A program made the position numbers and the translations under genes. The notes below the pieces were generated by a model. It ran no database searches. It was not told the DNA's origin and saw only the letters and a program-made list of their open reading frames with translations. From a virus (Duplodnaviria; Caudoviricetes), in IMG/VR virus record IMGVR_UViG_3300047159_000056, positions 32,001 through 96,000 of that record: DNA of 64,000 bases; one strand, written 5' to 3'. This document shows positions 3,718-31,223 of this stretch, one piece after another. Position 1 is the first letter of the stretch; each line of letters starts with the position of its first letter.

Positions 3718-5304
3718 ATGGAAGAGAAAATCTTAATAGAAAATTCAAAATTAGTGATTAAAAAAATTATTAGTGGACCAAATACAAGTGGTTCTACAAA
3801 TTCCCCGGATATTATTGTTAAGCTAGATCTTGACAATATACAGGATATTAGTAGACCTTGTGTTGTGGCAACTTTTAAACATGAGAAAGACGGAACAATT
3901 AGAGACATCCTAAATGCTAGTTCTAAGTTTGCAGAGATTGGAAGTACTGGTATAGAATTTCGCTGTGACTTTGTAGGAGATGAGTTTTGGGTTCTTGAAA
4001 AATCTAAGAAACTAGAAAAGAATCCTCAACAATATTCTAATCATGATATAGCCGTAATAGCAGAAATGATTAAGACACTATACAATCCAAAGAACATAAC
4101 TAAGTGTGAAACCTTAGTCAGAGCCCTTGGAATAGATGACTTAACTGATGCTTTCTATAAGACACCAATGTTCTTTATTAATAGAGCAGATAATTCTTTT
4201 GGAGAAATACTGAAGAATATCCTAGTTGATTCTATTAGTAAAGATGATAAAGAGATTAAGAGAAATAAAACCTTCTTAAATAGAGAAACCTATAGTAGAA
4301 GTAGATATTCTGTTTATCACTTAATGAAAGACATTGTAGAGGATGGCGCCAGTATTATGATTAGCAAAGATCTAACTGGTGAATATAATAAAATCAGTAA
4401 GTCAGGAACACAAGGTTGGAAATTTGCTGCTACCTGGATGAAAGTTATAAACCTCCTAGGTAACAGAGAAAGAGCCAATATGAGTTTTAAATGTTCCTAT
4501 TCTGTTACAATAAAAGTACCGGAGAATAAAAAACTTGGTGTTGCAGCAGATGAGAGAGAACTAAACACAATTATCAACCTGAATATTATAAAGGATGGAT
4601 TGGTAAATATTGATAGCATTGGAATAAAAGGATCTAAAGAATTTATACAGAAACTAAAGAGAAAACATATAGTGGAATTCAATATCTTATATGAGAATGA
4701 AGTCCTGGTTGATCTCAAGAAGCTTCCAATTATTAGTAGATCCGATATTAGAAGACCTAGTATACAATTGCTAAGCGAACTGGTAAAAAATATAGAACTG
4801 TCAAGAATAGCCGCTAAGTTTTATGAATTAACTAAGCCGGCACCTAAGAAGACGGCCAAAGAAAAATACCTGGAAAGTCTTGGTATATATGGTAGCTGGT
4901 ATTTTAAGAAACAACAACCAGCAGTTCCAGCAACATATACTTATAATGCAACAACACTATGCTCGAACAACTCCCTCAAGTCTATTTCAACTGCAGATAT
5001 CTCAAAGTATACCAAAGGAATTAGAACTGCACAAATAAAAACAATATCTAATTTCCTGGATAATCTTTGCAGAATAAATCCAGAAAGGGAATATAAACTC
5101 TGGAGTGAAAAACATGAGGACTTAGTTCAAGATTATAGGAAGTATGTATTTGAGTTGATCCTTGGAAAAAATCTGAAACTTAAAGATATTAGAAAAAATA
5201 AAAATATCAAGATAGAGGGTTTATCCACATATGTTAGAGACTATAGAATAACTAACTATGTCAAGGTAAACTGGAATATAAAGGTTAAATCAATTGAAGT
5301 TTAA
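3718..5304 (+). CDS. hypothetical phage protein (528 aa)
   Basis: Long ORF preceded by ccttaattatg promoter motif and followed by a terminator. Confidence 0.8.
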   Translation: MEEKILIENSKLVIKKIISGPNTSGSTNSPDIIVKLDLDNIQDISRPCVVATFKHEKDGTIRDILNASSKFAEIGSTGIEFRCDFVGDEFWVLEKSKKLEKNPQQYSNHDIAVIAEMIKTLYNPKNITKCETLVRALGIDDLTDAFYKTPMFFINRADNSFGEILKNILVDSISKDDKEIKRNKTFLNRETYSRSRYSVYHLMKDIVEDGASIMISKDLTGEYNKISKSGTQGWKFAATWMKVINLLGNRERANMSFKCSYSVTIKVPENKKLGVAADERELNTIINLNIIKDGLVNIDSIGIKGSKEFIQKLKRKHIVEFNILYENEVLVDLKKLPIISRSDIRRPSIQLLSELVKNIELSRIAAKFYELTKPAPKKTAKEKYLESLGIYGSWYFKKQQPAVPATYTYNATTLCSNNSLKSISTADISKYTKGIRTAQIKTISNFLDNLCRINPEREYKLWSEKHEDLVQDYRKYVFELILGKNLKLKDIRKNKNIKIEGLSTYVRDYRITNYVKVNWNIKVKSIEV

Positions 5305-5359
5305 AAATATAAATAGAAAGTAGGGAGAAAAACTCTACTTTCTTTTCCTTATTCTTGAT

Positions 5360-6259
5360 ATGAAAACATTTAAAGACGTAGAAGTTGGAGATAAAATTTA
5401 TATAGCAATAAAAGGAGTGTTTGGCAGAATTCCTAGTAGATATATAATACAGGATGATCTTATTCTTGAAACAGCAAAAGTGAAAAAAATATTAGATGAC
5501 AAAAGAACACTCATTATCGAACATGGAAAAGAACAGGTAGAAGTAGAAAACCCTATTATCTTAGGACATATTAACTTAAGAAATAGTGTACATTATGCTA
5601 TGCCTTTTGATACTATTATTGATGGCAAGCCTATTTCTTGTAATCTGGTAGCTTGTTCTTGTGCTGAATCATTTATAAAATATGTGATAAATGAAAACAT
5701 AGAATCATTAGCTTCTAGAAGTAGAGATATTATGGACTATACCTTTTCTAAATATAATCCAGTAAAAGAAAATATAGACCAGCTAATAGATACAATGCTA
5801 AAAATACCTAGTTCAAATGATAAGCTAAAAGTAGGAGATACTGTTTATGGATTTCTTACAGTAACAGTATACTCAACAAATGAACCTATACAAAGTCTAA
5901 TTGATGTTGTTCCTGTAAATCTAGAAATAATAGATATCTTGGATGAAAATGGATCAGAATATAAGTTATTGGGAAAAGATAGTAATGGTGCAACTTATGA
6001 AGGAACAGCTTGGAGACCAAATCTAAGTGTATATGGTATGTGTTCTTTTGTTGGATCTGAGCTGGAAAAATTTAATGCTATTTGTATTAATTCGGAAGGG
6101 GCAGTAAAATATCTTAGATGCCTTTTATCAACTAATATACCTGGAGCCTATCAAAGACAATTAGATAGCTTTGATTCTAGGAATGAGATAAGAAAATGCA
6201 TTGAACTAATAGATGGACTAGAAAAATTAAAGGAAAAATATGAGAAGGAAACTATTTAA
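5360..6259 (+). CDS. hypothetical protein, paralog of next gene
   Basis: FKDVEVGDKIY and LKVGDTVYG internal repeat, shared with 6240..7145. Confidence 0.8.
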   Translation: MKTFKDVEVGDKIYIAIKGVFGRIPSRYIIQDDLILETAKVKKILDDKRTLIIEHGKEQVEVENPIILGHINLRNSVHYAMPFDTIIDGKPISCNLVACSCAESFIKYVINENIESLASRSRDIMDYTFSKYNPVKENIDQLIDTMLKIPSSNDKLKVGDTVYGFLTVTVYSTNEPIQSLIDVVPVNLEIIDILDENGSEYKLLGKDSNGATYEGTAWRPNLSVYGMCSFVGSELEKFNAICINSEGAVKYLRCLLSTNIPGAYQRQLDSFDSRNEIRKCIELIDGLEKLKEKYEKETI

Positions 6260-7808: not shown

Positions 7809-8090
7809 TCATCCTTGGTTATTAATGAGATATTCAAACTTATATTTTCTACAAGCCCTATGTAGGTTTTTTCTAGTGTCCCTTAATTTTCTTAGACGAC
7901 CTATAATAGAACATAATGCATCCGAATCTAAGAACTCTCTATTCAGTTTTAGGTTAGACACAATTAGTTTAACTTCAAGGTCAGTCTTAGAGACCCTACT
8001 TGCTGCATTCATCCATCTTCTCTTGTAATAAGATGCTCTCTTGTTCTTAATTTCTCTCATAAGTTTTTTATTTTTTAAAGGGGAAGACAC
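7809..8090 (-). CDS. basic hypothetical protein
   Basis: ORF in a minus-strand operon ending at a bidirectional terminator (7766-7804). Confidence 0.6.
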   Translation of the reverse strand: MSSPLKNKKLMREIKNKRASYYKRRWMNAASRVSKTDLEVKLIVSNLKLNREFLDSDALCSIIGRLRKLRDTRKNLHRACRKYKFEYLINNQG

Positions 8091-8114
8091 TATTATCCTC
8101 CCCTCCTATTTTTA

Positions 8115-8786
8115 TTACATATCAAAAGACTGCCACTCTAATCTCTTAATAGCACGATTCATATCAGAGTTCTTTGTTCTTCCATTAAACGTAATAGAAC
8201 TACAACTCTCTGGAACCGGCATAGGATTAGATAAGCAAATATCAAGATTATTGTATACTGCATCTGGAACCATCGTAATAGATTCCCCTTCTTTGTCACC
8301 CTCTAACTTATAAACTATAAAGTGATTCAAATCTAAAAGTACATCTATATAACGACCTGGATAAAAATGATAACACTTCCATCTAAGATCATCACGAAGA
8401 TTAACTATAATAGACTTCTGAATGTTATTATCACTACCCATCTCTAAGGCAGGAAATAATTCAGGACCTCTACCATAAATAACCGGATTCTCCTTTCTCA
8501 AGAATCCCTCAAGATACACTTTACTCTTCTCTTCAATATTCTCTCTACTGTGATCAAGAATAGTAGACATAACATCTATACTTCTCATATTCTTCTCAGT
8601 AGCCGAGAAATCTGAACTCTTAGTAATCTCACTTATTTTTTCTAAAGATACTAAGGGAATACATTTTTTACTAAGACCAGGACTAGTAATCTGATATAAA
8701 TAAACAGACGTACCTAGACCTTGATTGTTAAGAAACATTGGATAATAGTTACCAAGTAAACTACACTTCATGCAATATTTTCTCAT
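8115..8786 (-). CDS. hypothetical protein
   Basis: 223-aa ORF overlapping the infA stop (ATGA coupling). Confidence 0.75.
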
Positions 8787-10047: not shown

Positions 10048-10193
10048 CGATGTTTCTTTTTACTATATGTTTTTTAGTTGGAGAAGAGGAATCTAATAAT
10101 GGTTCCCTTCTTTTTCCTTCCAAAAACTATATAAAACCCTTATTAATGAAAAGGAAGATAATAATGTCTTTCCTTAATTTAAAAGATAGAAAA

Positions 10194-10301
10194 ATGATTA
10201 AAAAAATTAAAAGATTCTTTTTTACAGCAAAAAAGAACTGTAGAACTGAAAAAGAATTAAGAGAAAACGGGATTTGGGTTAATGACCTGAATCAATTCTA
10301 A
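10194..10301 (+). CDS. small early protein (35 aa)
   Basis: ATG right after promoter/leader hairpin; terminator follows. Confidence 0.55.
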   Translation: MIKKIKRFFFTAKKNCRTEKELRENGIWVNDLNQF

Positions 10302-10400
10302 ATAAGACAGAGGAAATAAAAATCCTCTGTTCTTTTTTTTTCACCTAGAACCCTTATATATGAAAGATAATAGTGTCTTTCGTTAATTTAAAAATAAAAT

Positions 10401-10502
10401 ATGATAGAATTAGTTTTAGCCTACACAGTAGCAGGCGTAGTGTTCTTAATAGTATGGAACACTTTTGTTAATCTATACGACAAAAATATAAAAAATAGAT
10501 AG
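10401..10502 (+). CDS. small membrane peptide (33 aa)
   Basis: MIELVLAYTVAGVVFLIVWNTF..., follows promoter/leader, abuts next ATG. Confidence 0.6.
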   Translation: MIELVLAYTVAGVVFLIVWNTFVNLYDKNIKNR

Positions 10503-10688
10503 ATGGAAGAAAATAAAATTTATGCCTTATTCGAAAATAAGGTGAGCGAGTTTGAATTTGATCTTAGTAAAGAGGAACAAGATCGAATTCTAAAAGAGTT
10601 AGGGATAGATGAAATCTCCCTAATATTCAATAGATACTTCACACAGGAAGGAGTAGAAAAAGTACTAAAAGTGTGGAGAAATAAATAA
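10503..10688 (+). CDS. small early hypothetical protein
   Basis: Coupled to upstream peptide; terminator follows. Confidence 0.7.
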   Translation: MEENKIYALFENKVSEFEFDLSKEEQDRILKELGIDEISLIFNRYFTQEGVEKVLKVWRNK

Positions 10689-10808
10689 AAGATTCTAGGA
10701 CAAGAGATAAAAACTTGCCCTATCTTTTTTCCGGCTAAAAAAGTAATAGGAGCCTTATATATGAAAGGAAGACAATAGTGCCTATCCTTAATTAAAAAAT
10801 AAAAGAAA

Positions 10809-11096
10809 ATGAAAAAGAAAGAAATGACCGACGCCGAAAGAAAGGCGCTGGAGATCAGATGCATCTTGAATAATAATTCAAGAAGAATAGAACTCTTCAA
10901 TTCCTTCATCGAAGGACATATTGAAGATAATGAGATCTATGACAAGCTAACAGAGGCAGAATGCGCCATGTTAGATGCGACAAACGAGATAGTAGGTAAG
11001 GCAAAGACTGACGAAGAATTTGCTGATGAAACATTAAAAAAGTTGGAGGAGAGATCTTTGTGGATCAATCCTATGACAAAAAGAGAAGGGAAGTAA
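10809..11096 (+). CDS. small early hypothetical protein
   Basis: Promoter-leader-ORF-terminator cassette. Confidence 0.75.
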   Translation: MKKKEMTDAERKALEIRCILNNNSRRIELFNSFIEGHIEDNEIYDKLTEAECAMLDATNEIVGKAKTDEEFADETLKKLEERSLWINPMTKREGK

Positions 11097-11195
11097 AAAT
11101 CCCCTTCTTTTTTATTTCCGTCTAGAAAGGTAATGAGTCCCTTATTAATAGAGAGGAGAGCAATAGTGCTATCCTTAATTAAAAATTGAAAAAAA

Positions 11196-11516
11196 ATGAA
11201 AAAAATCGTTAATTTTCAAGTTGACCTTCAACGGTCAAAAGTTGATTCTAGCAGTTTTACTATGTCTGCAAAGAAACAAAAAGCTCCCAATGAGGAGTTT
11301 GTAAAAATTGCAGAGATCAAGGAAAATCCTGATTGTTTGCACGATAGATCATCTTGGCCTTTTACGGCTGAGATTGATGGATTAGGATGCCGATTAATGT
11401 CCGTAAAACCGGCAAAGGACGAAAAGTCTCGGACGTACATTTCTTGGGTTAGAACATATTTGCCCAAGATACTGTGTAAGGTATTTGGGGAATCTATTCA
11501 CATATATAGTGAATAG
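11196..11516 (+). CDS. small early hypothetical protein
   Basis: Promoter-leader-ORF-terminator cassette. Confidence 0.75.
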   Translation: MKKIVNFQVDLQRSKVDSSSFTMSAKKQKAPNEEFVKIAEIKENPDCLHDRSSWPFTAEIDGLGCRLMSVKPAKDEKSRTYISWVRTYLPKILCKVFGESIHIYSE

Positions 11517-11637
11517 TCCAAAGTAAAGGAAGGTGGGAAGAAAAATCCCGCCATTCTTTTTTTCCGTCTAGCTTATTGTTAAAAACCTTATTAGTAGAGA
11601 GGAAGATAATAGTGTCTATCCTTAATTAAAAATTGAA

Positions 11638-11862
11638 ATGAAAATGGAAGAGATTTCAGAAATCCAGGAAAAACTACCTGGAATCATTGAAAAACTCCCG
11701 GAAGGGAAGTTAAAGGGACAGTTTATAAAGCTCAAAAGGAAAGTTGAGAAGGCCGAAAAGGTTGACAAAAGCGAAGGAGCAACATTCGCAAACTTATTGA
11801 GACTTTTATACATATGTTTTATGTATGAATATCTTAGAATAAGACTAGAAGAGGGAGTTTAA
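11638..11862 (+). CDS. small early hypothetical protein
   Basis: Promoter-leader-ORF-terminator cassette. Confidence 0.7.
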   Translation: MKMEEISEIQEKLPGIIEKLPEGKLKGQFIKLKRKVEKAEKVDKSEGATFANLLRLLYICFMYEYLRIRLEEGV

Positions 11863-11928
11863 TCTCCTTCTTTTTTTCAACCTCCTGATTCCTTATATAT
11901 GTTAAAATATATATATACAAAAAGAATT

Positions 11929-12048
11929 ATGGATAACAAAGTAGTAATTAAGACGACAATGCAAAGTGAATTAAGTCGCCAAAATGAAATTCTAGAGTCT
12001 ACTGTGAAGGAGGCTGTAGAAATGGTAAAAGCAAAATTTAAATTTTAA
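11929..12048 (+). CDS. small protein (39 aa, MDNKVVIKTT...)
   Basis: Own ccttatatatg promoter (~11891) and terminator (~12060-12097). Confidence 0.6.
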   Translation: MDNKVVIKTTMQSELSRQNEILESTVKEAVEMVKAKFKF

Positions 12049-12180
12049 TTGTGAAGTGTAAGGAGGTAAGAAATGAAGTCTTGCCTCTTTATTTTTCTTC
12101 CTTCTAGAAATAATATAATATAACCCTTATATATGTAGGGATAGGTAATAGTGCTTTATCCTAATTTAAAAAATAGAAAA

Positions 12181-12400
12181 ATGAAAAAATAAAAACTATT
12201 AGCCTTAAGAAATATAAATATAAGGCTAGAAAAAGAGCTGAAACTCTTAGGAAAAGAAAAAGAATGATGAGATGTGTAAAATCATTGATGGGACTGGGGG
12301 TTAAGGTAGCTATCATGATGATGGGATGCGCCGTTATAGAAAAAATGACGAACGACTTAATAGAGGTGGCAGAAAAATCAAAAACCACTGCTGTTAAATA
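12181..12400 (+). CDS. small basic protein, frameshifted in an A-run (probable sequencing error)
   Basis: Adding one A after ATG gives a 73-aa ORF (MKKIKTISLKK...TTAVK) that fills the cassette. Confidence 0.6.
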
Positions 12401-12507
12401 AATAAATGATAGGGTAGAATTAAGGACAAAAAATTCTACCCCTTTATTTTCGTCTAGAATCCTTATATCTGGATAAGCAATGAAGCTAATCCTTAAAATT
12501 TAAAAAA

Positions 12508-12839
12508 ATGAAAAAGAAACAGAAGAAGGATTCAGGATTGCAGGTATAATTATGCTAGCAGGAATCCAATTAAAAATTGCCTATGATGTAATTATCGGAT
12601 ATGGCAAAAAAGAGCTCAAAAGAAAAAGGGAGCTAATTGAAGAGATTTGTCGGCTGCAGGAAGCAACCGAGAAAAAATCAAAATTGATAGATGAGATCAT
12701 TTATGAAGATCCTATCCTATCAAGGATGAACTTAAATAACCTTGTAGAAAATGAGGTTATAGATCTGGAAAGACTGGCCAGGTTATTTAGGTCAGTTAAT
12801 AAAAACGACGCTAAAAAAGAAGAGGAGGAAAAGAAATGA
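12508..12839 (+). CDS. hypothetical protein; probable true start 12508 with an A-run frameshift
   Basis: Adding one A gives MKKETEEGFRIAGII joined to the 12552 ORF. Confidence 0.65.
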
Positions 12840-13222
12840 AAAAAATTTTTATCAACTTAGCGGAAACAACTATTGATCTCATTAGTGGTGCAACCATTTA
12901 TGAGTCGATAAGACAGCTGAAAAGAGATTTTGATGTCACAAAAGACAGAAGAGATCTCCTAGTAGAAAGAACTGTGGAGATGTACAAGGACAAAGAAGTC
13001 CTAGACACTTCTTTAGATATATTTGATGCTTCTAGAGGACACGAAGAAGCTTACAAGGTAGTGTTTGGTGATGATGGAAACATTGAATCAGTCAAAAAAT
13101 TGTGTAAAGATCTAACTCTGGATAATATAAAACATCCAGAGAATATAGGAAGATATAAATATGAAAAGGCTAACCAAGTCTATATGATTGCCGCAATGGC
13201 AAAGGCCCGGTTAAGTAAGTAG
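12836..13222 (+). CDS. hypothetical protein
   Basis: ATGA-coupled to upstream ORF; terminator follows. Confidence 0.75.
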   Translation: MKKIFINLAETTIDLISGATIYESIRQLKRDFDVTKDRRDLLVERTVEMYKDKEVLDTSLDIFDASRGHEEAYKVVFGDDGNIESVKKLCKDLTLDNIKHPENIGRYKYEKANQVYMIAAMAKARLSK

Positions 13223-13343
13223 TATTTGTAAAGAAAGGTAGAGAATATTAAAAAGTCTCTACCTCTTTTTCCGTTTCAAAAATATATAGGACCCTTATAT
13301 ATGAGAGACAATAATGCTTCTCAGAATTTAAAATAAAAGAAAA

Positions 13344-13778
13344 ATGGAAAAGAAAAAAATTTATGGGGACATGTTTATTATCCCCAACGAAGCAATTAAG
13401 TATTCAGAATTTTTACCCTTCGCTAAAGAAAGTGCGAGGGAGAAGTTGAATTATCTGGGAATAAACCCGGATGAAAATGAAAAGATGATTCAAGTATGGT
13501 TTACAGGATCCGGTGAGGATAACTGGAATGACCATGCCGGTGCTCTATGTCGGTTGGCTGGAATTGAAGAACCAAACATGGACGACAAAGACAGATACCT
13601 TAAGGAATATATCACGAGGTATCTTCCCGAAAGCATGCTAAAAAATGTGCATGAAGGAGAAACAATAACTATAGACTGTAATAATTTTAACTGCACGCTG
13701 GTATTAACTGCAAAGCAGCTTGATTACAGGTATAGGGGTTTTGGTAGATTTGAGGACGCATTGAAACACGTTCTCTAA
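13344..13778 (+). CDS. hypothetical protein
   Basis: Promoter-leader-ORF-terminator cassette. Confidence 0.8.
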   Translation: MEKKKIYGDMFIIPNEAIKYSEFLPFAKESAREKLNYLGINPDENEKMIQVWFTGSGEDNWNDHAGALCRLAGIEEPNMDDKDRYLKEYITRYLPESMLKNVHEGETITIDCNNFNCTLVLTAKQLDYRYRGFGRFEDALKHVL

Positions 13779-13829
13779 ATACAAAGGAGAAAGAAAGAAC
13801 TAGACAAAATCTGGTTCTCTTTCTTTTTT

Positions 13830-14590
13830 TTTCGATACCTATTAAATTTCGCCTAGGCTTACCATACGTATATTTTTTCCTTCACTTCGACCACAAAGGG
13901 TCTCGTTCAGGGTATGAATTGACTATAGATATAATATATAGGAAAAATTAATTTAAACTAATTGGAAAAATAAAGGAAATAAAGAAAGAAATAAAGGAAA
14001 AATTTAAAGGAAATTATATTTTAATTAGATTTTTAATTAATAAAAAAAATACCTAAAAAGTTGATGGAGTAATAAATTACATAGAGCCATACCGAAATAT
14101 TTTGGTAGAATTAGGCTTTTTTACTCTTCATAAAGGTAGTATATATCTTAATAATAGAATATTCATGGGGGTCAAAATATATGTTCTCTTTGTACACTGA
14201 GAATAATAAACTCTTTTTCTTTTTTCAGTCTTATAACTTATTTTTCGCGCATAGGTTGTCAGTCTGTGTAATTATCTTCACTTCGACCCTTAAGGGGTCT
14301 CGTTCAGGGAAAATTGACTATAACCCTAGAATATTTAATAAACAATTCTTTTTATTATTTAGGCTAATAATATATATTTTTATATTGATATTAAAAATAA
14401 AAGATTTAGCCTAGTTTAAAAAGAAAATAACTTATTAATTAGTATAACTTTTTTAATTTATTATTATAGTATCGATTTAAAATTTTTTAATTGGATAAGT
14501 TATTGCTCTTCTTATAGTATTAAATACCTTATAAATGAACCTGTAAACCTAGGCGATGAAAATAATGTTATTAATAAATTAAATATATAA
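13830..14590. other. putative replication origin (AT-rich non-coding region with two ~47-bp structured direct repeats)
   Basis: cttcacttcgacc-n-gggtctcgttcaggg-n-aattgactata at 13880-13927 and 14276-14322; very AT-rich tracts; adjacent helicase; codon skew flips across the region. Confidence 0.55.
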
Positions 14591-16680: not shown

Positions 16681-17520
16681 ATTCCTTATATATGGAAAAT
16701 TAGAAGTTCCTAAATATTATTTGTTGGTAGAGGAGAAGTCGTGAGATTAGTTCCTCTACTTTTTTAATCATCTTAAATCCTTACTAGTGGAATAGGATTT
16801 ACCATTTCAATCAATTTTAATGAGTAAATAAGGGATAGTTGTGAAACTAGTTCCCCTATTTTTTCGCCCTCTCAAAAACACCTATAATCCTTATATGTGA
16901 AATAAAGAACCATCTTTAATTTTTTGCCCGAAAGGGGCGATTATTTATATTATAGGGGATAGTTGTGAAACTAGTTCCCCTATTTTTTTTTCACCCTCTC
17001 AAAAGCACCTATAATCCTTATATGTGAGTAATATGAATATCGTATCACAATTTTATACAGAGTACAGGGGAAAGCGGATCGTGATGATTAGCTTTCCTAT
17101 TTTTTTTCAACCCTCCTAATTCCTTATAAGTGAAATTAAGAAGAGATTCAATTCATGTTTTTTAATTTGTCCCGAAAAGGGAGTTATTATTTTTTAGGGA
17201 GAACAGATCGAGATGATTAGTTCTCCTATTTTTTTTAACCTTCCTAAAACACCTTAAATCCTTATATGTGAAAGTAAAAGAGATTTCATATTGTTTGCCC
17301 ATTAACGGGTGAATTTTAATTAATAATATTAATAATCTCAGTAGGAGATAGTCGTGATGATTAGTTCTCCTATTTTTTTTTTCGTCCCCCTTAGAAATAC
17401 TTTAAATCCTTATATGTGACAGAGATGTCATTCTCCATAATAAATAACTTCCAAGAGAGGAAGTGGAAAATTAAATGTTTTTTAGGGGATAGTTGTGAAA
17501 CTAGTTCCCCTATTTTTTTT
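16681..17520 (+). ncRNA. array of 7 putative small RNA genes (promoter + variable 5' segment + conserved 3' hairpin/U-tract)
   Basis: Units begin ~16681, 16776, 16886, 17013, 17119, 17257 and 17405 with ccttAnnnnTG, contain no ORF, and end in a GG.GA..RTYG(T/A)GA(T)RAYTAG.T..CCT hairpin + T-run. Confidence 0.7.
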
Positions 17521-18924: not shown

Positions 18925-18981
18925 AATCCTTACTAGTGGAAGCTAATAGTGGTTTCCATAATATCCAAAAAATTAGTAAAG

Positions 18982-19134
18982 ATGCATATTTTTGGAAAAG
19001 CTTTGAACAAGGCATTAAATGTGTCTTGGTGTGCTGTAGTTATATTTGCAGGAGCTACAGTTGTTGAATGGGGTATAAATGGGTTGATCGAAAACATTTG
19101 CTCCAAAGAAAAAAGAAGTAGAAGAAGTTCCTGA
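18982..19134 (+). CDS. small membrane protein (may extend to 19168 after an A-run frameshift)
   Basis: Preceded by promoter and leader hairpin (18928-18958); one TM segment. Confidence 0.55.
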   Translation: MHIFGKALNKALNVSWCAVVIFAGATVVEWGINGLIENICSKEKRSRRSS

Positions 19135-19225: not shown

Positions 19226-19304
19226 CCTTATATATGTTAAATATGTTAATGTTTTTTTTTGAAAACGGGAGGAGAGCAGGTCGTGAGATTAGCTCTTCTT
19301 TTTT
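19226..19304 (+). ncRNA. orphan copy of the small-RNA unit
   Basis: ccttatatatg + short AT-rich body + gagagcaggtcgtgagattagctctt hairpin and T-run; same loop motif as the array. Confidence 0.6.
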
Positions 19305-27406: not shown

Positions 27407-27985
27407 TTATATTCTAAAGTATTTTAAGAAAAATGTTGTGTCTATTATAGTTATCTCATTTTTCTTAGCTGCATTAATTTTTGCTTCCCCAGGTGAATCT
27501 CCCATTAGTAGAAGGTTAGTATCTTTTCTTATATTCACAGTGTATCTTATTCCATGACTTTCGAATATCTTAATGTATTTTTCTCTAGTTGTACTTAGAG
27601 TTCCAGTTATGCAAATTACAGCTTCTCCTGGTTCTTTTGGGTCAGGTAAATATTCCATCATAAGTGTTTCTGACTTATCAAATTCTCTATAATAGCCACT
27701 AGAGATTATATCACCTCTATCTGTTTTAAATATCCAACTTCTTATATAATATTCTTCTTCAAATCCACAGTCTAATAATTCAAGATATGTTATAGTAATA
27801 ATAAATTTATTTCCATTACCTAATTCTACTATGGTATTATCCGGTGAATCTGGATCATCACTAAGTATTACAGTTGGACTAGTTCTAATTACATTAACTG
27901 GCAGTTCTTTATCCAGTTTACATACAACTTGATGAAACTTTAAGAATGTCTCATCTTTATTTTTTGCATTATTAATCAGATTCAT
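27407..27985 (-). CDS. BRCT-domain protein
   Basis: C-terminal ICITGTLSTTR..IRKDTNLLLMGDSPGEAKINAAKKNEITIID, like NAD-ligase BRCT. Confidence 0.8.
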   Translation of the reverse strand: MNLINNAKNKDETFLKFHQVVCKLDKELPVNVIRTSPTVILSDDPDSPDNTIVELGNGNKFIITITYLELLDCGFEEEYYIRSWIFKTDRGDIISSGYYREFDKSETLMMEYLPDPKEPGEAVICITGTLSTTREKYIKIFESHGIRYTVNIRKDTNLLLMGDSPGEAKINAAKKNEITIIDTTFFLKYFRI

Positions 27986-28250
27986 AATTTTCTATTAACC
28001 ATTTTTCAAGTCCGTCCACATCTAGTCCTGCCTCTAGTTCATAGTAACAGTCCTTATCGTGTCTATCTGTGTAACCTATTATGTTTATCTTTCCGTTATA
28101 GTTTATAATAACCTCTAAATTTCGTCCGCCTACTACTATGCAAAAGTAAGTTAGGCCAATTTCATTTAGACCATAATTATCAACTAGGATTTTTTCAGTT
28201 AGTCCTATATCTTTCTCCATATAATCAAATAGTTCTTTCCGTGTCATCAT
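27972..28250 (-). CDS. hypothetical protein
   Basis: Overlapping minus-strand operon. Confidence 0.65.
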   Translation of the reverse strand: MMTRKELFDYMEKDIGLTEKILVDNYGLNEIGLTYFCIVVGGRNLEVIINYNGKINIIGYTDRHDKDCYYELEAGLDVDGLEKWLIENYESD

Positions 28251-28615
28251 ACTTCTAGAGAAAATATAGCATCTTCTATGGTTGTATAGTTCCCAATTAC
28301 TTTACTAGTATTTATAAGTGTTTCTAATTTTGTAAGATCTGGAATATAGCCATCAAACATAACTAATTTTATTTCTCCCTTTACTAGACAATATACACTC
28401 TTGTAACAGCTTTTTTCAGTTACTAAGATTATTGGACTATCTGTTTTCCCATCATTTAATTCTAGGACTACAGGGAATAATAGTTTTGGAATAGTTAATG
28501 TTTTATCCACTATAAAATCTCCATAACTATCTTCTACTACTCTTCCACCTCTTTTAGATAAGAAGGCAAAAGATTGTTTTAGATAATAACCTTCTAAACG
28601 ATCAATTGTATTCAT
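28247..28615 (-). CDS. hypothetical protein
   Basis: ATGA-coupled operon. Confidence 0.7.
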   Translation of the reverse strand: MNTIDRLEGYYLKQSFAFLSKRGGRVVEDSYGDFIVDKTLTIPKLLFPVVLELNDGKTDSPIILVTEKSCYKSVYCLVKGEIKLVMFDGYIPDLTKLETLINTSKVIGNYTTIEDAIFSLEV

Positions 28616-28914
28616 TCTGGTTTATATATTAGACTAAATTGTTTTGGTGTTAGACTAAATATTTTTCCTCCACCAATACATATAATTGAATCTCTACTAG
28701 AAGCTTTTACCAATGATCCTACTCCTCCTGAATCTTTTATATCATATCCTCCATTGCTAAATTCAGACATCTCAAGATATTTATTTCCTTCTCCGTCTAT
28801 AAATTTAACTTTAGCTAGATCAGATAACCATTCAGGAACCACATTGCCTCTTATCCAGATATTTACTTGTTCTGGAAATAGGTCGTTTTTTCCTCTCTGT
28901 TTATAGTTTTCCAT
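28612..28914 (-). CDS. hypothetical protein
   Basis: ATGA-coupled operon. Confidence 0.7.
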   Translation of the reverse strand: MENYKQRGKNDLFPEQVNIWIRGNVVPEWLSDLAKVKFIDGEGNKYLEMSEFSNGGYDIKDSGGVGSLVKASSRDSIICIGGGKIFSLTPKQFSLIYKPE

Positions 28915-29602
28915 TATTATTAAGTTTTACTTTCTCTAAATAATTAATTCCCATATCCATTATTAAGGAAGCCACTACATCTTTTATACTGGATCCCTTG
29001 AATGTATTTAGATATTTAGAGATATTAGGATTTTCTAGCCACTTAGTAACAATTATATCTTTAAAGAATAGAACATCACTCTTAGAAGAATGAGTTGCAT
29101 ATTGATTATTACTATCTTCAATTTCTTTATATCCTCCCCACCAAGTTTTCTTATATTTTATTTTATACATTGAATATAGATCTTCTGGTGACTTTCTATA
29201 AATATTCATAATAGGACTAGCTATAGTATTTGCAGTCCATATTATAGATTCTGAATTAACTCTAGATATTTCACTTAAGGAGCTTATATTCCAATCTTCT
29301 AAGACTAAGTAAGATATATAGGTTTTCCATATTTCTCTACTATATTCTAAGACATCAAACATAGCTTCTCCAGAATTTTTAGAGCTAACTATATAACCCA
29401 TACCATTATAGAGAGATGTAAATTTATCTTGATTTATTCCTGTTTGTCTTGAATCAAATATAAAGAAGACATCTGTATCTTTTGCAAGTAGGTCTATAGA
29501 ATCATGTACTACTTTGGATTTAGGATATTCTTTTCCAACATATATCATTGTTAAGATAATATGTTTTGGTTGTCTTAATAAATAAATTGCATTCTTATTC
29601 AT
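28901..29602 (-). CDS. hypothetical protein
   Basis: First gene of minus operon; minus-strand ccttatatgttg motif ~29627-29638. Confidence 0.75.
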   Translation of the reverse strand: MNKNAIYLLRQPKHIILTMIYVGKEYPKSKVVHDSIDLLAKDTDVFFIFDSRQTGINQDKFTSLYNGMGYIVSSKNSGEAMFDVLEYSREIWKTYISYLVLEDWNISSLSEISRVNSESIIWTANTIASPIMNIYRKSPEDLYSMYKIKYKKTWWGGYKEIEDSNNQYATHSSKSDVLFFKDIIVTKWLENPNISKYLNTFKGSSIKDVVASLIMDMGINYLEKVKLNNNGKL

Positions 29603-29725
29603 ACTGTTTCTTTTTATTATTATTTACCACATATAAGGAACCCAAAACTACTTAAGTGTAAAAAGTCAAATTTGTAGTAACTTGATTCCTTAATTTTGAA
29701 TGAATAAAATAATAAATAAAAACTT

Positions 29726-30265
29726 ATGGAAAGAATAAAATATGTTGTAGAAGCATTACAATCCAATGGGGAATGGGTTCCTAGAATGGAATATTATAAT
29801 AGTTATGAGGCTAATCTTGAGTTAGAGAATGAGAAAAATCTAACCAAGTCTGATATCTTAATGGAAGAAGAAACAGAAGATCGTCCAGTAGATTTTAGGG
29901 TAACTGAAAAGCCGGAGCACTATATAGTTATGGGAACTAATGATAGAGAAAGTTTATTATTTAATGACTTACTAAACCTAGAAAATTTTATTGAGTCTAA
30001 CGATAAGGTAGTCCTAAGAAGGTTATCAATATGGTTTGGCCCAGAAACAGATCAAGATTTTATAGAAGAAATGGGAGACAGAACTAACCTAATGATAGTA
30101 GAATTTAGAAGAAAAAAGAAACATTGGTGGTCTCCTCTTCCAAAATATAAGCATATGTTTTTATGTTTCTATAGTGAGTCTGATTATCTTGAAAATATAG
30201 ACTACTTAGTAAACAAAAAATATTATAAAGAAGTCAAATCAGAATCTATAAAACTTGTCTTATGA
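29726..30265 (+). CDS. hypothetical protein
   Basis: Follows ccttaattttg promoter. Confidence 0.75.
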   Translation: MERIKYVVEALQSNGEWVPRMEYYNSYEANLELENEKNLTKSDILMEEETEDRPVDFRVTEKPEHYIVMGTNDRESLLFNDLLNLENFIESNDKVVLRRLSIWFGPETDQDFIEEMGDRTNLMIVEFRRKKKHWWSPLPKYKHMFLCFYSESDYLENIDYLVNKKYYKEVKSESIKLVL

Positions 30266-30579
30266 ACAACAAATATATAGAAACTGGAGAGGATGATTTT
30301 AGTTACAATAAACGTTTAGATCACCTAGATATTGTAGGAAAGCCTATATCTCTCGGTGATATTGTGGTTTATGTTATTGATCGTGGAGAATCTAGAAATC
30401 TTTCAATTGGCAAAGTCTATATGATGTCAAAGACGGGAGATAGAATTTATATAATAGATAAATCTAGTCCAGACTATGATAAAGATATTGAAACCTTAAG
30501 AGAAGCAAGCATCAATAATAGCTATAATATTTGCCATACCTGCTTTAGAAATTCTCTTAATACATATGCAATAAAATGA
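30262..30579 (+). CDS. hypothetical protein
   Basis: DIVGKPISLGDIVVY, a common phage SH3-like start. Confidence 0.7.
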   Translation: MNNKYIETGEDDFSYNKRLDHLDIVGKPISLGDIVVYVIDRGESRNLSIGKVYMMSKTGDRIYIIDKSSPDYDKDIETLREASINNSYNICHTCFRNSLNTYAIK

Positions 30580-31223
30580 AAAACAAGATTAAAGACTTTG
30601 TAATTAATAAGAATTACAAAAATTGTGTAGTAGACTTAGTGGATCCTTCTGATGAAAAATTTATTGATAACTTAGTGGATAGTGGACTTAGAGGCCTATA
30701 TCTAGATCTTAGTGATGAATTAAAAGATCAGTGGAGTGTAGATTTTTGGGAGAACATACCACTTGTTCCTCAGCCAGAAAAAGATAAGATGTTCTGTGAT
30801 ATTCTATTTACAGAGGACTTAAAAATTTGTAAGAAGGCAAGAGAGAATACTAGTGATTTTATTCTAGATAGATCCAAGTGTGCCTTTACTAATAGAGTAG
30901 GTCCTAAGAAGAATATAATAGAATATGTTTCCACCTTTGATTATGGTCCAAATATCGTGGAGTATATTTATTGGTGTGGTTCTTATTTTACTATTTTTAT
31001 ACCATACAGAGGAAATTGGTTAAATCTAGATACTAAGAAGATGCTTTATCAGGATATGGATAAAGATATTGACTATATAAAAAGCCAGGGAGTTAAGATA
31101 GATGAAGAGGAAGATTCTATCCTGGAAGCTCTAGGGCGTGTATGGAAAAGTTTAGGCGTTGGGATTGATTCATATGGTTATCCCCTGCCAAATTATAAAG
31201 AATGTAGAAAGGAGATTATATGA
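30576..31223 (+). CDS. hypothetical protein sharing a domain with 31965..33626
   Basis: YIYW..FTIFIPYRGNWLN vs FLYF..LNLYIPIRGNWIF. Confidence 0.75.
   Translation: MKNKIKDFVINKNYKNCVVDLVDPSDEKFIDNLVDSGLRGLYLDLSDELKDQWSVDFWENIPLVPQPEKDKMFCDILFTEDLKICKKARENTSDFILDRSKCAFTNRVGPKKNIIEYVSTFDYGPNIVEYIYWCGSYFTIFIPYRGNWLNLDTKKMLYQDMDKDIDYIKSQGVKIDEEEDSILEALGRVWKSLGVGIDSYGYPLPNYKECRKEII

Follow-up and report, generated by a model that had tools for sequence, protein, structure and literature searches.

The DNA analysed here, a stretch of 64,000 nucleotides hereafter called the window, comprises bases 32001-96000 of a 207,396-bp viral record of IMG/VR (IMGVR_UViG_3300047159_000056, here G000; ∼31% GC, CheckV completeness 56%), and carries a row of small genes that are each preceded by a hairpin with a freely varying stem and a nearly fixed loop. 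Since the stem is free and the loop fixed, and since this holds also in two further contigs whose marked genes are unrelated, we suggest that the hairpin may be an operator for a loop-specific RNA-binding factor, a reading which we favour while giving it somewhat less than an even chance. Under this proposal, an RNA hairpin with a variable stem of 6-9 base pairs and a hexaloop AAURRU closed by a Y-G pair would lie directly at the 5′ terminus of its mRNA or no more than about 5 nt away, transcription starting from the final purine of CCTTATATAT-G/A, a promoter core specific to the phage. Joined at its 3′ end to a leader of about 20 nt (UUAAUUUAAAA...) that ends at the AUG, the hairpin would be part of a single translation-initiation module, and a sequence-specific trans-acting factor, probably encoded by the phage, would read the loop and thereby jointly set the translation and/or the lifetime of the mRNAs of about 18 accessory genes, mostly ORFans of 33-144 residues. 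Phage mRNAs are well known to carry conserved hairpins in their leaders, and no concept is overturned by finding one here; this particular motif is new. A search of the literature returned no description of it, and an Rfam scan of positions 8-20 kb of the window at a permissive threshold yielded three chance-level matches (E > 0.6).

The 18 copies present in the whole record were aligned, and the covariance model built from this alignment was then run on both strands of the 207 kb. The copies score 33.7-54.9 bits while the next-best match attains 21 bits (E ∼ 0.4), and because of this gap the hairpin family is sharply bounded. Ten copies lie inside the window and eight outside, seven of the latter being clustered at 198-206 kb. 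A first-pass annotation, made from the letters of the window alone, had listed nine hairpins, all of which were recovered in their places, each between a promoter-like CCTTATATATG core and an ATG. Its count of ‘at least nine’ thus holds, although its list lacked a tenth copy at 8063-8107 on the minus strand of the window as well as the eight copies outside. It had likewise stated that the motif is absent before most metabolic and structural genes, in agreement with which the record holds no further model matches. A variant hairpin, GAAAGA-cuuagua-UCUUUC (free energy of folding, ΔG, -6.6), stands behind another promoter of this class at genome position 185648 (-) (L015), beyond the limits of the window; it combines the usual stem with a loop of 7 nt in which UAGU occurs, is missed by the model, and may be a diverged copy.

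In the row of cassettes at 10.1-13.8 kb on the plus strand, the order is terminator, C-rich patch, core CCTTATATATG, hairpin, (C)UUAAUUUAAAA, and ATG of a small open reading frame (ORF). The hairpin starts 0-5 nt past the promoter core and the promoter-to-loop distance is bimodal (6-7 or 9-12 nt), with short forms, 14 of which have stems that start exactly at the last G of the core, and long forms. The distance from the end of the loop to the ATG is 23-31 nt in all copies, with a mode of 28-30 nt; between the stem's 3′ end and the ATG there are about 15-23 nt, so that the earlier estimate of about 15-25 nt needs just slight narrowing. The features are given below in window positions unless a genome position is stated; z refers to dinucleotide shuffles.

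Promoter core, example, 10137..10148 (+): (aat)CCTTATATAT-G/A; such a core precedes 24 of 25 copies, and its final purine is the putative +1.
Copy 1, long form, 10148..10193 (+): GGAAGAU/aauaau/GUCUUUCC followed by the UUAAUUUAAAA leader; ATG at 10194, ORF of 35 residues; 53.3 bits, ΔG -7.9, z -2.9.
Copy 2, short form, 10362..10400 (+): stem GAAAGAU/GUCUUUC from the promoter's last G, loop AAUAGU; ATG at 10401; 54.2 bits, ΔG -7.5, z -6.4.
Copy 3, long form, 10763..10808 (+): loop AAUAGU; ATG at 10809, ORF of 95 residues; 54.9 bits.
Copy 4, long form, 11150..11195 (+): loop AAUAGU; ATG at 11196, ORF of 106 residues; 44.8 bits, ΔG -10, z -3.6.
Copy 5, long form, 11596..11637 (+): loop AAUAGU; ATG at 11638, ORF of 74 residues; 51.9 bits.
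Copy 6, long form, 12135..12180 (+): loop AAUAGU; ATG at 12181 opening a 3-codon mini-ORF (MKK*), with an ORF of 45 residues at 12264; 46.3 bits.
Copy 7, short form, 12471..12507 (+): deviant loop AAUGAA; ATG at 12508 opening an ORF of 13 residues that overlaps the start of an ORF of 95 residues (12552); 33.7 bits, z -3.0.
Copy 8, short form, 13303..13343 (+): loop AAUAAU; ATG at 13344, ORF of 144 residues; 41.1 bits.
Copy 9, short form, 18938..18981 (+): promoter variant CCTTACTAGTG, loop AAUAGU; ATG at 18982, ORF of 50 residues; 37.2 bits, ΔG -9.2, z -4.6.
Copy 10, intercistronic, 8061..8107 (-): strongest stem, GGGGAGGAU/GUCUUCCCC, loop AAUAGU; 42 bits, ΔG -17.4 in the comparison of sense and antisense folds.
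Loop starts of the nine sites listed by the first pass: 10160, 10369, 10774, 11162, 11608, 12147, 12479, 13310 and 18945.
Copies outside the window, genome positions: 25525 (-), 198312, 198552, 199093, 199434, 199732, 205643 and 206252.
Intrinsic terminator, example, 10306..10341 (+): GC stem plus T-run; one such terminator stands at the end of each cassette, shortly before the next promoter.

Evidence for the stem comes primarily from compensatory change. The helix was modelled as seven pairs around the hexaloop, and controls were obtained by sliding the 3′ partner by one to three columns. Among the 18 copies of the record, 85.6% of stem cells are paired versus 49-58% in the slid controls, and the covariation score is 0.53 versus 0.12-0.27. 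When the five distinct copies of a second viral record and the two copies of a metagenome contig (both introduced below) are added to give 25 distinct copies from three contigs, 86.2% of stem cells are paired versus 48-57%, and all seven pairs exhibit double changes, which bears out the earlier statement that the stems vary with pairing retained (48-58% paired in the slid controls of both alignments together). The observed covariation (0.53-0.58 across the two alignments) was reached by none of 500 shuffles; as the copies are paralogues, the shuffle statistics overstate their independence, and the slid controls, which keep the relatedness, are the fairer comparison and are also clear. The stems are 6-9 base pairs long and every stem column varies in sequence. 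When the ten copies of the window were folded, ΔG ranged from -4.7 to -10 kcal/mol and z from -1.3 to -6.4.

The loop behaves quite differently, in that its first three bases are AAU in 25 of 25 copies. AAUAGU occurs 16 times, AAUAAU five times, and AAUAUU, AAUAAA, AAUGAA and AAUGGU once each, while the closing pair is C-G in 11 copies, U.G in 11 and U-A in three. The first pass had given the loop as YAAUAGUG and as nearly fixed; the near-fixity stands, whereas the flanking Y and G turn out to be the closing pair of a hexamer, AAURRU. RNAfold additionally pairs A1 with U6, leaving an AUAG tetraloop to which the hexaloop is the alternative form. Conserved single-stranded bases presented by a covarying helix are a feature of translational operators for RNA-binding proteins, and the present hairpins display it, with a loop that is invariant or nearly so and double changes at all seven stem pairs. 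As a side observation, loop positions 3-5 (alignment columns 16-18) read UAG, UAA or UGA in 23 of 25 copies, and together with UAA triplets in the downstream UUAAUUUAA the loop places stop codons in all three frames of the leader, which may merely follow from U-R-R and A/U richness. A loop-borne stop codon was dropped as a candidate signal, its occurrence in 23 of 25 copies following from U-R-R, and so was the notion that the stem mimics a Shine-Dalgarno/anti-Shine-Dalgarno helix, for which the distance to the AUG is wrong.

The strand on which the structure acts can be read from the non-canonical pairs. Across the 25 copies, the sense strand has 33 G.U against six A.C juxtapositions, G.U making up 19% of the stem cells, and the mean ΔG is -8.46 kcal/mol for the sense strand versus -5.76 kcal/mol for its reverse complement, the sense strand being the more stable in 21 of 25 copies (Wilcoxon p = 6e-4). 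Given this bias of G.U over A.C and the more stable folding of the sense strand, the structure is selected on the sense strand, that is, as RNA or, less likely, as non-template DNA, and not on the template strand in the manner of bacteriophage N4 promoters.

It is then of importance for the weighing of these data that the module recurs outside the record. A megablast search with 10-18 kb gave no match among GenBank phages, and tblastn with the neighbouring 682-residue helicase-like protein turned up no phages other than distant, unannotated or unrelated ones. The same protein leads to ten IMG/VR loci at 32-52% identity, and among the records thus retrieved the hairpin occurs only in G002 (IMGVR_UViG_3300047159_000048, 73 kb), in six copies, one of which lies within a 1.3-kb stretch 99.7% identical to the end of G000, so that five are distinct. 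The shared stretch (genome 206069-207396, L016:10069-11396, versus G002 4785-6113, L267) holds a small RNA unit, a hairpin cassette and an AAA ATPase gene, G002 being otherwise divergent; its identity reflects either a very recent cassette exchange or a chimeric contig end. When metagenomes were scanned with a three-part pattern and the matches were filtered with the model, one of 60 loci proved real, the contig Ga0326511_10001527 (L331), with two copies having the loops AAUAGU and AAUGGU. In IMG/VR the three-part pattern was found in G002 only; scans for loop plus leader and for promoter plus loop gave single chance matches among the matches listed, and a scan with the exact short-form pattern found nothing.

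In the parts sampled, BLASTP matched none of the L331 ORFs to G000 or G002, and the proteins common to G000 and G002 are the helicase-like and AAA proteins only; in a BLASTN comparison of these two records, regulatory cassettes that are 80-85% identical over 70-100 nt constitute the main DNA similarity. Because core, hairpin and leader are conserved while the marked genes of the contigs are unrelated, the regulatory module, as far as the sequences tell, outlives the genes it serves. The relatives G001 (305 kb, 83% complete) and G003-G010 gave no model match, and de novo k-mer inspection of these relatives revealed different promoter words and no analogous hairpin. With a promoter-plus-leader pattern from which the loop was omitted, we retrieved a near-clonal family of more than 45 IMG/VR contigs (L337-L391; 200-400 kb; samples 3300045988 and 3300035283) that share one identical site, CCTTATATGTG, with an ATG 22 nt later; this is the same promoter-like core with no hairpin, and no model match was obtained in the two records searched, with 150 candidate sites scored in each.

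The promoter core itself is well defined. The exact 11-mer occurs 16 times forward and once reverse in the record and not at all in the reversed-sequence control, and a logo of 49 promoter instances reads aatCCTTATATAT-G/A, in which CC, TTA and T8 are invariant (100%) and position 9 is always a purine (R9 100%). Between 9.5 and 14.5 kb there are 11 terminator-like sites versus 2.6 expected, whereas sigma-70-type promoters are not enriched in the region (17 versus 19.6 expected). We place the transcription start (+1) tentatively at the purine of core position 9, so that short-form hairpins would begin at +1 and long-form hairpins at +3 to +5. This assignment is suggested first because the short-form stems, which covary among themselves (GAAAGAU/GUCUUUC, GAUAGGU/AUCUAUC, GAGAGGC/GCUUCU, GGAUAAGC/GCUAAUCC), begin at that very G, which makes sense in RNA only if the G is transcribed, and second because the promoters of phages phiKZ and AR9 have a like geometry. 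The phiKZ non-virion RNA polymerase (nvRNAP) recognizes TATG with G as +1 (PMC4666361), and the AR9 late promoter is AACA-N6-T-A/G with the last purine as +1 (PMC5312081). The core described here likewise ends in an invariant T plus purine with a conserved block about 10 nt upstream, and relatives encode a beta-like subunit; it differs in that CCTTATATATG is distinct from, and longer than, TATG, and in that the start is here deduced from sequence. For neither phage did the literature searched describe a leader hairpin family.

The promoter is thus probably read by a multisubunit RNA polymerase of the phage. No sigma-70 region 2, beta or beta′ domains were found in the 207 kb of G000, which is 56% complete, but G002 encodes a 1034-residue protein with an RNA_pol_Rpb2_6 match of 57 bits, above cut-off (27730-30831, minus strand; L393/L395), and an orthologue with 57-63% identity is present in G001 at 40187-43643 (L396-L398), in three pieces with stops between or inside them. 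The split of the G001 gene could be due to introns or inteins, to a split gene as in phiKZ, or to another genetic code. Used as a single query, the beta-like protein found its own contig only. Judged by these domain matches, the clade carries a multisubunit polymerase, which in G000 presumably lies in the missing 44%.

Downstream of the stem follow about 20 nt of A/U-rich single strand, free of a Shine-Dalgarno sequence, up to the start codon. A Shine-Dalgarno-like tetramer at -18 to -5 is found in only 10% of ORFs of at least 120 residues, as in the control window, and positions -20 to -1 are 43-58% A, except for 32% at -1, versus 34% background; translation initiation is thus in the style of Bacteroidota, without Shine-Dalgarno sequences. 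In Bacteroides thetaiotaomicron, the modal 5′ untranslated region (UTR) measures 23 nt (PMC7366714), and by this analogy the module looks like a host-optimal leader to which a hairpin has been added on the 5′ side. Behind two leaders, mini-ORFs were noted, namely 12181-12189 (MKK-stop) and 12508-12546 (13 codons, lysine-rich, overlapping the start of the next gene), which suggests upstream-ORF or translational-coupling arrangements.

Two observations reveal that the hairpin is separable from the promoter. First, about 30 promoters of the same class lack a hairpin and drive small RNAs and other genes, the transcript 5′ ends being predicted as unstructured (ΔG 0 to -3.5) with two exceptions; the hairpin is thus an optional module that marks a subset of transcripts. 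Second, copy 10 is located directly 3′ of the stop codon of the ORF 8115-8786 (-), with no standard promoter core or terminator before it, and is followed by an ATG at 8060, 28 nt past the loop and hence at the usual spacing. At this site, the hairpin can be neither part of a promoter nor a 5′-terminal cap, and the absence of a standard promoter and terminator therefore ties the element to translation initiation or mRNA fate.

For the operator reading, the closest known counterparts are the T4 RegA, T4 gp43 and MS2/PP7 coat-protein operators, in which a short hairpin or motif likewise lies in the initiation region and the loop rather than the stem sequence is conserved; with T4 RegA there is the further likeness that one and the same site on many unrelated phage mRNAs defines a post-transcriptional regulon. 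They differ in that the present hairpin ends about 20 nt before the AUG whereas theirs cover the Shine-Dalgarno sequence or the AUG, in that AAURRU matches no known operator, and in that the protein is here hypothetical and the host of a type that does without Shine-Dalgarno sequences. Several points weigh against an operator of this kind, whichever the direction in which the candidate factor would regulate. The copies are paralogous cassettes, probably spread via duplication and recombination, so their similarity is in part due to common descent. Promoter (0-5 nt) and ATG constrain the position of the hairpin to about the same degree, and it is therefore mainly the one intercistronic copy that speaks for the start codon as the anchor. 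No candidate binding protein emerged, the sampled parts of the three contigs sharing no suitable gene, and the loop could owe its conservation to an intrinsic fold or to a factor of the host, for instance the ribosome or an RNase, instead of a phage protein. Finally, the promoter may be read in another register, with TAtaTaTG as a -7 box (TAnnTTTG-like) of the Bacteroidota type, which is centred at -7 (PMC7366714), and a start 4 nt after the G. This register suits the long forms perfectly but would truncate the 14 short-form hairpins in the RNA.

A base-paired 5′ end protects an mRNA against 5′-end-dependent decay, as in the leaders of T7 gene 10, ompA of Escherichia coli and aprE/SP82 of Bacillus subtilis, and the T7 gene 10 leader consists of promoter, purine-rich 5′ arm, pyrimidine-rich 3′ arm and AU-rich leader. 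One may thus ask whether the hairpin is a factor-free cis element which shields the triphosphate end from decay and keeps the ribosome-loading leader unstructured, the loop being conserved for folding or via homogenisation of the cassettes. We regard this main rival as unlikely, though it deserves serious weight. The overall layout (phage-polymerase promoter, hairpin near +1, AU-rich unstructured leader, AUG) is shared with all of these stabilisers, and that of the T7 gene 10 leader recurs down to the base composition of the two arms. Moreover, the hairpin would lie 0-5 nt from the 5′ end of the predicted transcript (+1 in short, +3 to +5 in long forms), and the stems are modest yet consistently more stable than shuffles (z -1.3 to -6.4). 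The unstructured leader of about 20 nt is likewise near the 23-nt modal 5′ UTR of B. thetaiotaomicron (PMC7366714). Yet known stabilisers serve single genes and have no particular loop, and a fixed loop would not be needed, whereas here AAU is kept in 25 of 25 copies, one of them internal to an operon, while the stem sequences change in a compensated manner. Nor is the intercistronic copy 5′-terminal, and most transcripts from the same promoter class, for which the hairpin is optional, manage without one.

Next to be considered is a role at the level of DNA, with the non-template hairpin serving as a downstream promoter determinant or with a repressor operator placed just after +1. The position immediately downstream of the core in 24 of 25 copies would be consistent with this, as would the sense-strand bias, which suits non-template DNA as well as RNA, and there is precedent in phiKZ, where transcription by nvRNAP gains about 30-fold from the sequences that follow TATG and the polymerase reads the non-template strand (PMC4666361, PMC12809450). 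We nevertheless consider such a role improbable. The arms covary without keeping their sequence, which argues against the operator of a dimeric protein; the promoter-to-loop distance is bimodal; one copy has no standard promoter; G.U, weak in DNA, occupies 19% of the stem cells and 11 of 25 closing pairs; and small RNAs as well as other genes are served by promoters of this class that have no hairpin.

Small hairpins whose loop is conserved, located near the start of the transcript in a region where every cassette is closed by an intrinsic terminator (11 versus 2.6 expected), also call to mind the nut sites of phage lambda, in which a nascent boxB hairpin recruits an antiterminator, here for read-through of the cassette terminators. 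The likeness does not extend far, and we give this explanation a slim chance. Lambda nut sites combine a GNRA-like pentaloop in boxB with boxA and number one or two per operon, whereas here an AAURRU hexaloop is present at no fewer than 18 sites with no conserved boxA-like partner, the 3′ flank being just A/U-rich leader. With a promoter in front of every cassette, read-through would be unneeded, a constant distance to the ATG would be unexpected, and the polymerase is probably not a host enzyme modified by N/Q-type factors.

With comparably low expectation, one may speculate that the loop is an mRNA address tag: a phage protein would read the AAUAGU loop and sort the transcripts for export, protected translation or timed destruction, in a jumbo phage which has its own multisubunit polymerase, possibly occupies a separate compartment as in phiKZ-like phages, and shuts off host mRNAs. 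If true, this would amount to a virus-encoded code for sorting mRNAs in a host whose translation initiation is not based on Shine-Dalgarno sequences.

The cassettes further resemble the PeSL elements of T4-type phages, in which repeated terminator-promoter blocks flank small ORFans in plastic regions, are better conserved than the genes and are shared by divergent phages (PMC2839356, PMC4122927). The same order of terminator, promoter, leader and small ORFan is found here, terminator-promoter blocks flank each small ORF and recur in G002 and L331 with different genes, a likeness that concerns the frame of the cassette and not the leader hairpin, which PeSLs lack, and the DNA similarity of G000 and G002 consists mainly of regulatory blocks, a segment of 1.3 kb being shared at 99.7%. 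That the hairpin is merely a passenger in such a mobile cassette, with no RNA function of its own, is however very improbable: homogenisation predicts identical stems and not compensation around an invariant loop, many cassettes have the same promoter and leader without the hairpin, and the PeSL stem-loop is a terminator upstream of the promoter, whereas the hairpin considered here is an extra, transcribed, fixed-loop element of the leader behind a promoter that is not sigma-70-like. PeSL-like recombination probably explains the spread of the cassettes rather than the role of the hairpin, and is compatible with the operator reading.

An early promoter of the N4 type, that is, a template-strand DNA hairpin extruded by supercoiling and recognized by a virion RNA polymerase that starts downstream, was among the functions proposed by the first pass together with an RNA-binding site and an mRNA stabiliser, and while its broader reading of a cis-regulatory element common to a set of small genes, probably a site for an RNA-binding factor or an mRNA stabiliser, agrees with the covariation, the fixed loop, the G.U bias and the conservation, this member of the list is now hardly tenable. 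N4 promoters have, on the template strand, a stem of 5-7 bp and a loop of 3 nt whose central purine (-11) is conserved (PMC4496689), and what is shared with them, namely small conserved-loop hairpins upstream of phage genes with an A-rich stretch after them, is outweighed by a loop of 6 nt in 25 of 25 copies, by a template-strand version that has A.C mismatches and is less stable in 21 of 25 copies, by a separate promoter core upstream (with one copy having no standard promoter or terminator), by at least 18 sites downstream of another promoter in place of three per genome, and by a clade that encodes a beta-like subunit of a multisubunit polymerase, N4 promoters calling for a giant T7-like virion polymerase. 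A search of G000 (56% complete), G001 and G002 for PF00940 (T7/N4-type polymerase) gave no match, but lacked a positive control and does not show that such a polymerase is missing.

If the loop is indeed a protein operator, it would define a post-transcriptional regulon in uncultivated, very large phages that have their own multisubunit polymerase and initiate translation without Shine-Dalgarno sequences, phages about whose gene control almost nothing is known. The motif then offers an RNA bait for finding the regulator, and it flags about 18-25 ORFans as a co-controlled candidate set for host takeover or anti-defence, while the position of the hairpin provides indirect evidence for the start site of the polymerase. 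The compact cassette of promoter, hairpin and leader could also become an expression part for Bacteroidota.

Turning to the marked genes, the first ORFs after the hairpin encode 3-347 residues, most of them 33-144; for eight of the ten largest, neither Pfam nor PHROG gave a significant match. The two that did match are an AAA ATPase (L016:10288-11328) and a protein of G002 in which pentapeptide repeats are fused to DUF5758 (L267:6878-7939, minus strand). Pentapeptide-repeat proteins are often DNA mimics, and DNA mimicry would suit a role of the G002 protein in anti-defence or host takeover. The labels ‘early’ and ‘host-takeover regulon’, which the first pass attached to the hairpin genes, are conjectural: small insulated ORFan cassettes are typical of early regions, whereas in its geometry the promoter instead resembles those read by the non-virion, middle/late polymerases of phiKZ and AR9.

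The core that drives the marked genes is also found before short units devoid of an ORF, at 16684-17520 and 19226-19304 of the window and at genome 206124-206200, which form an array of small RNA genes. Base pairing between the hairpin loop and these small RNAs was considered and dropped: the loop complement CACUAUU was not seen in this array when inspected by eye, no systematic search having been made. Each of the small RNA units ends in a conserved hairpin apex (GUCGUGAGAUUAG-like) followed by a U-run.

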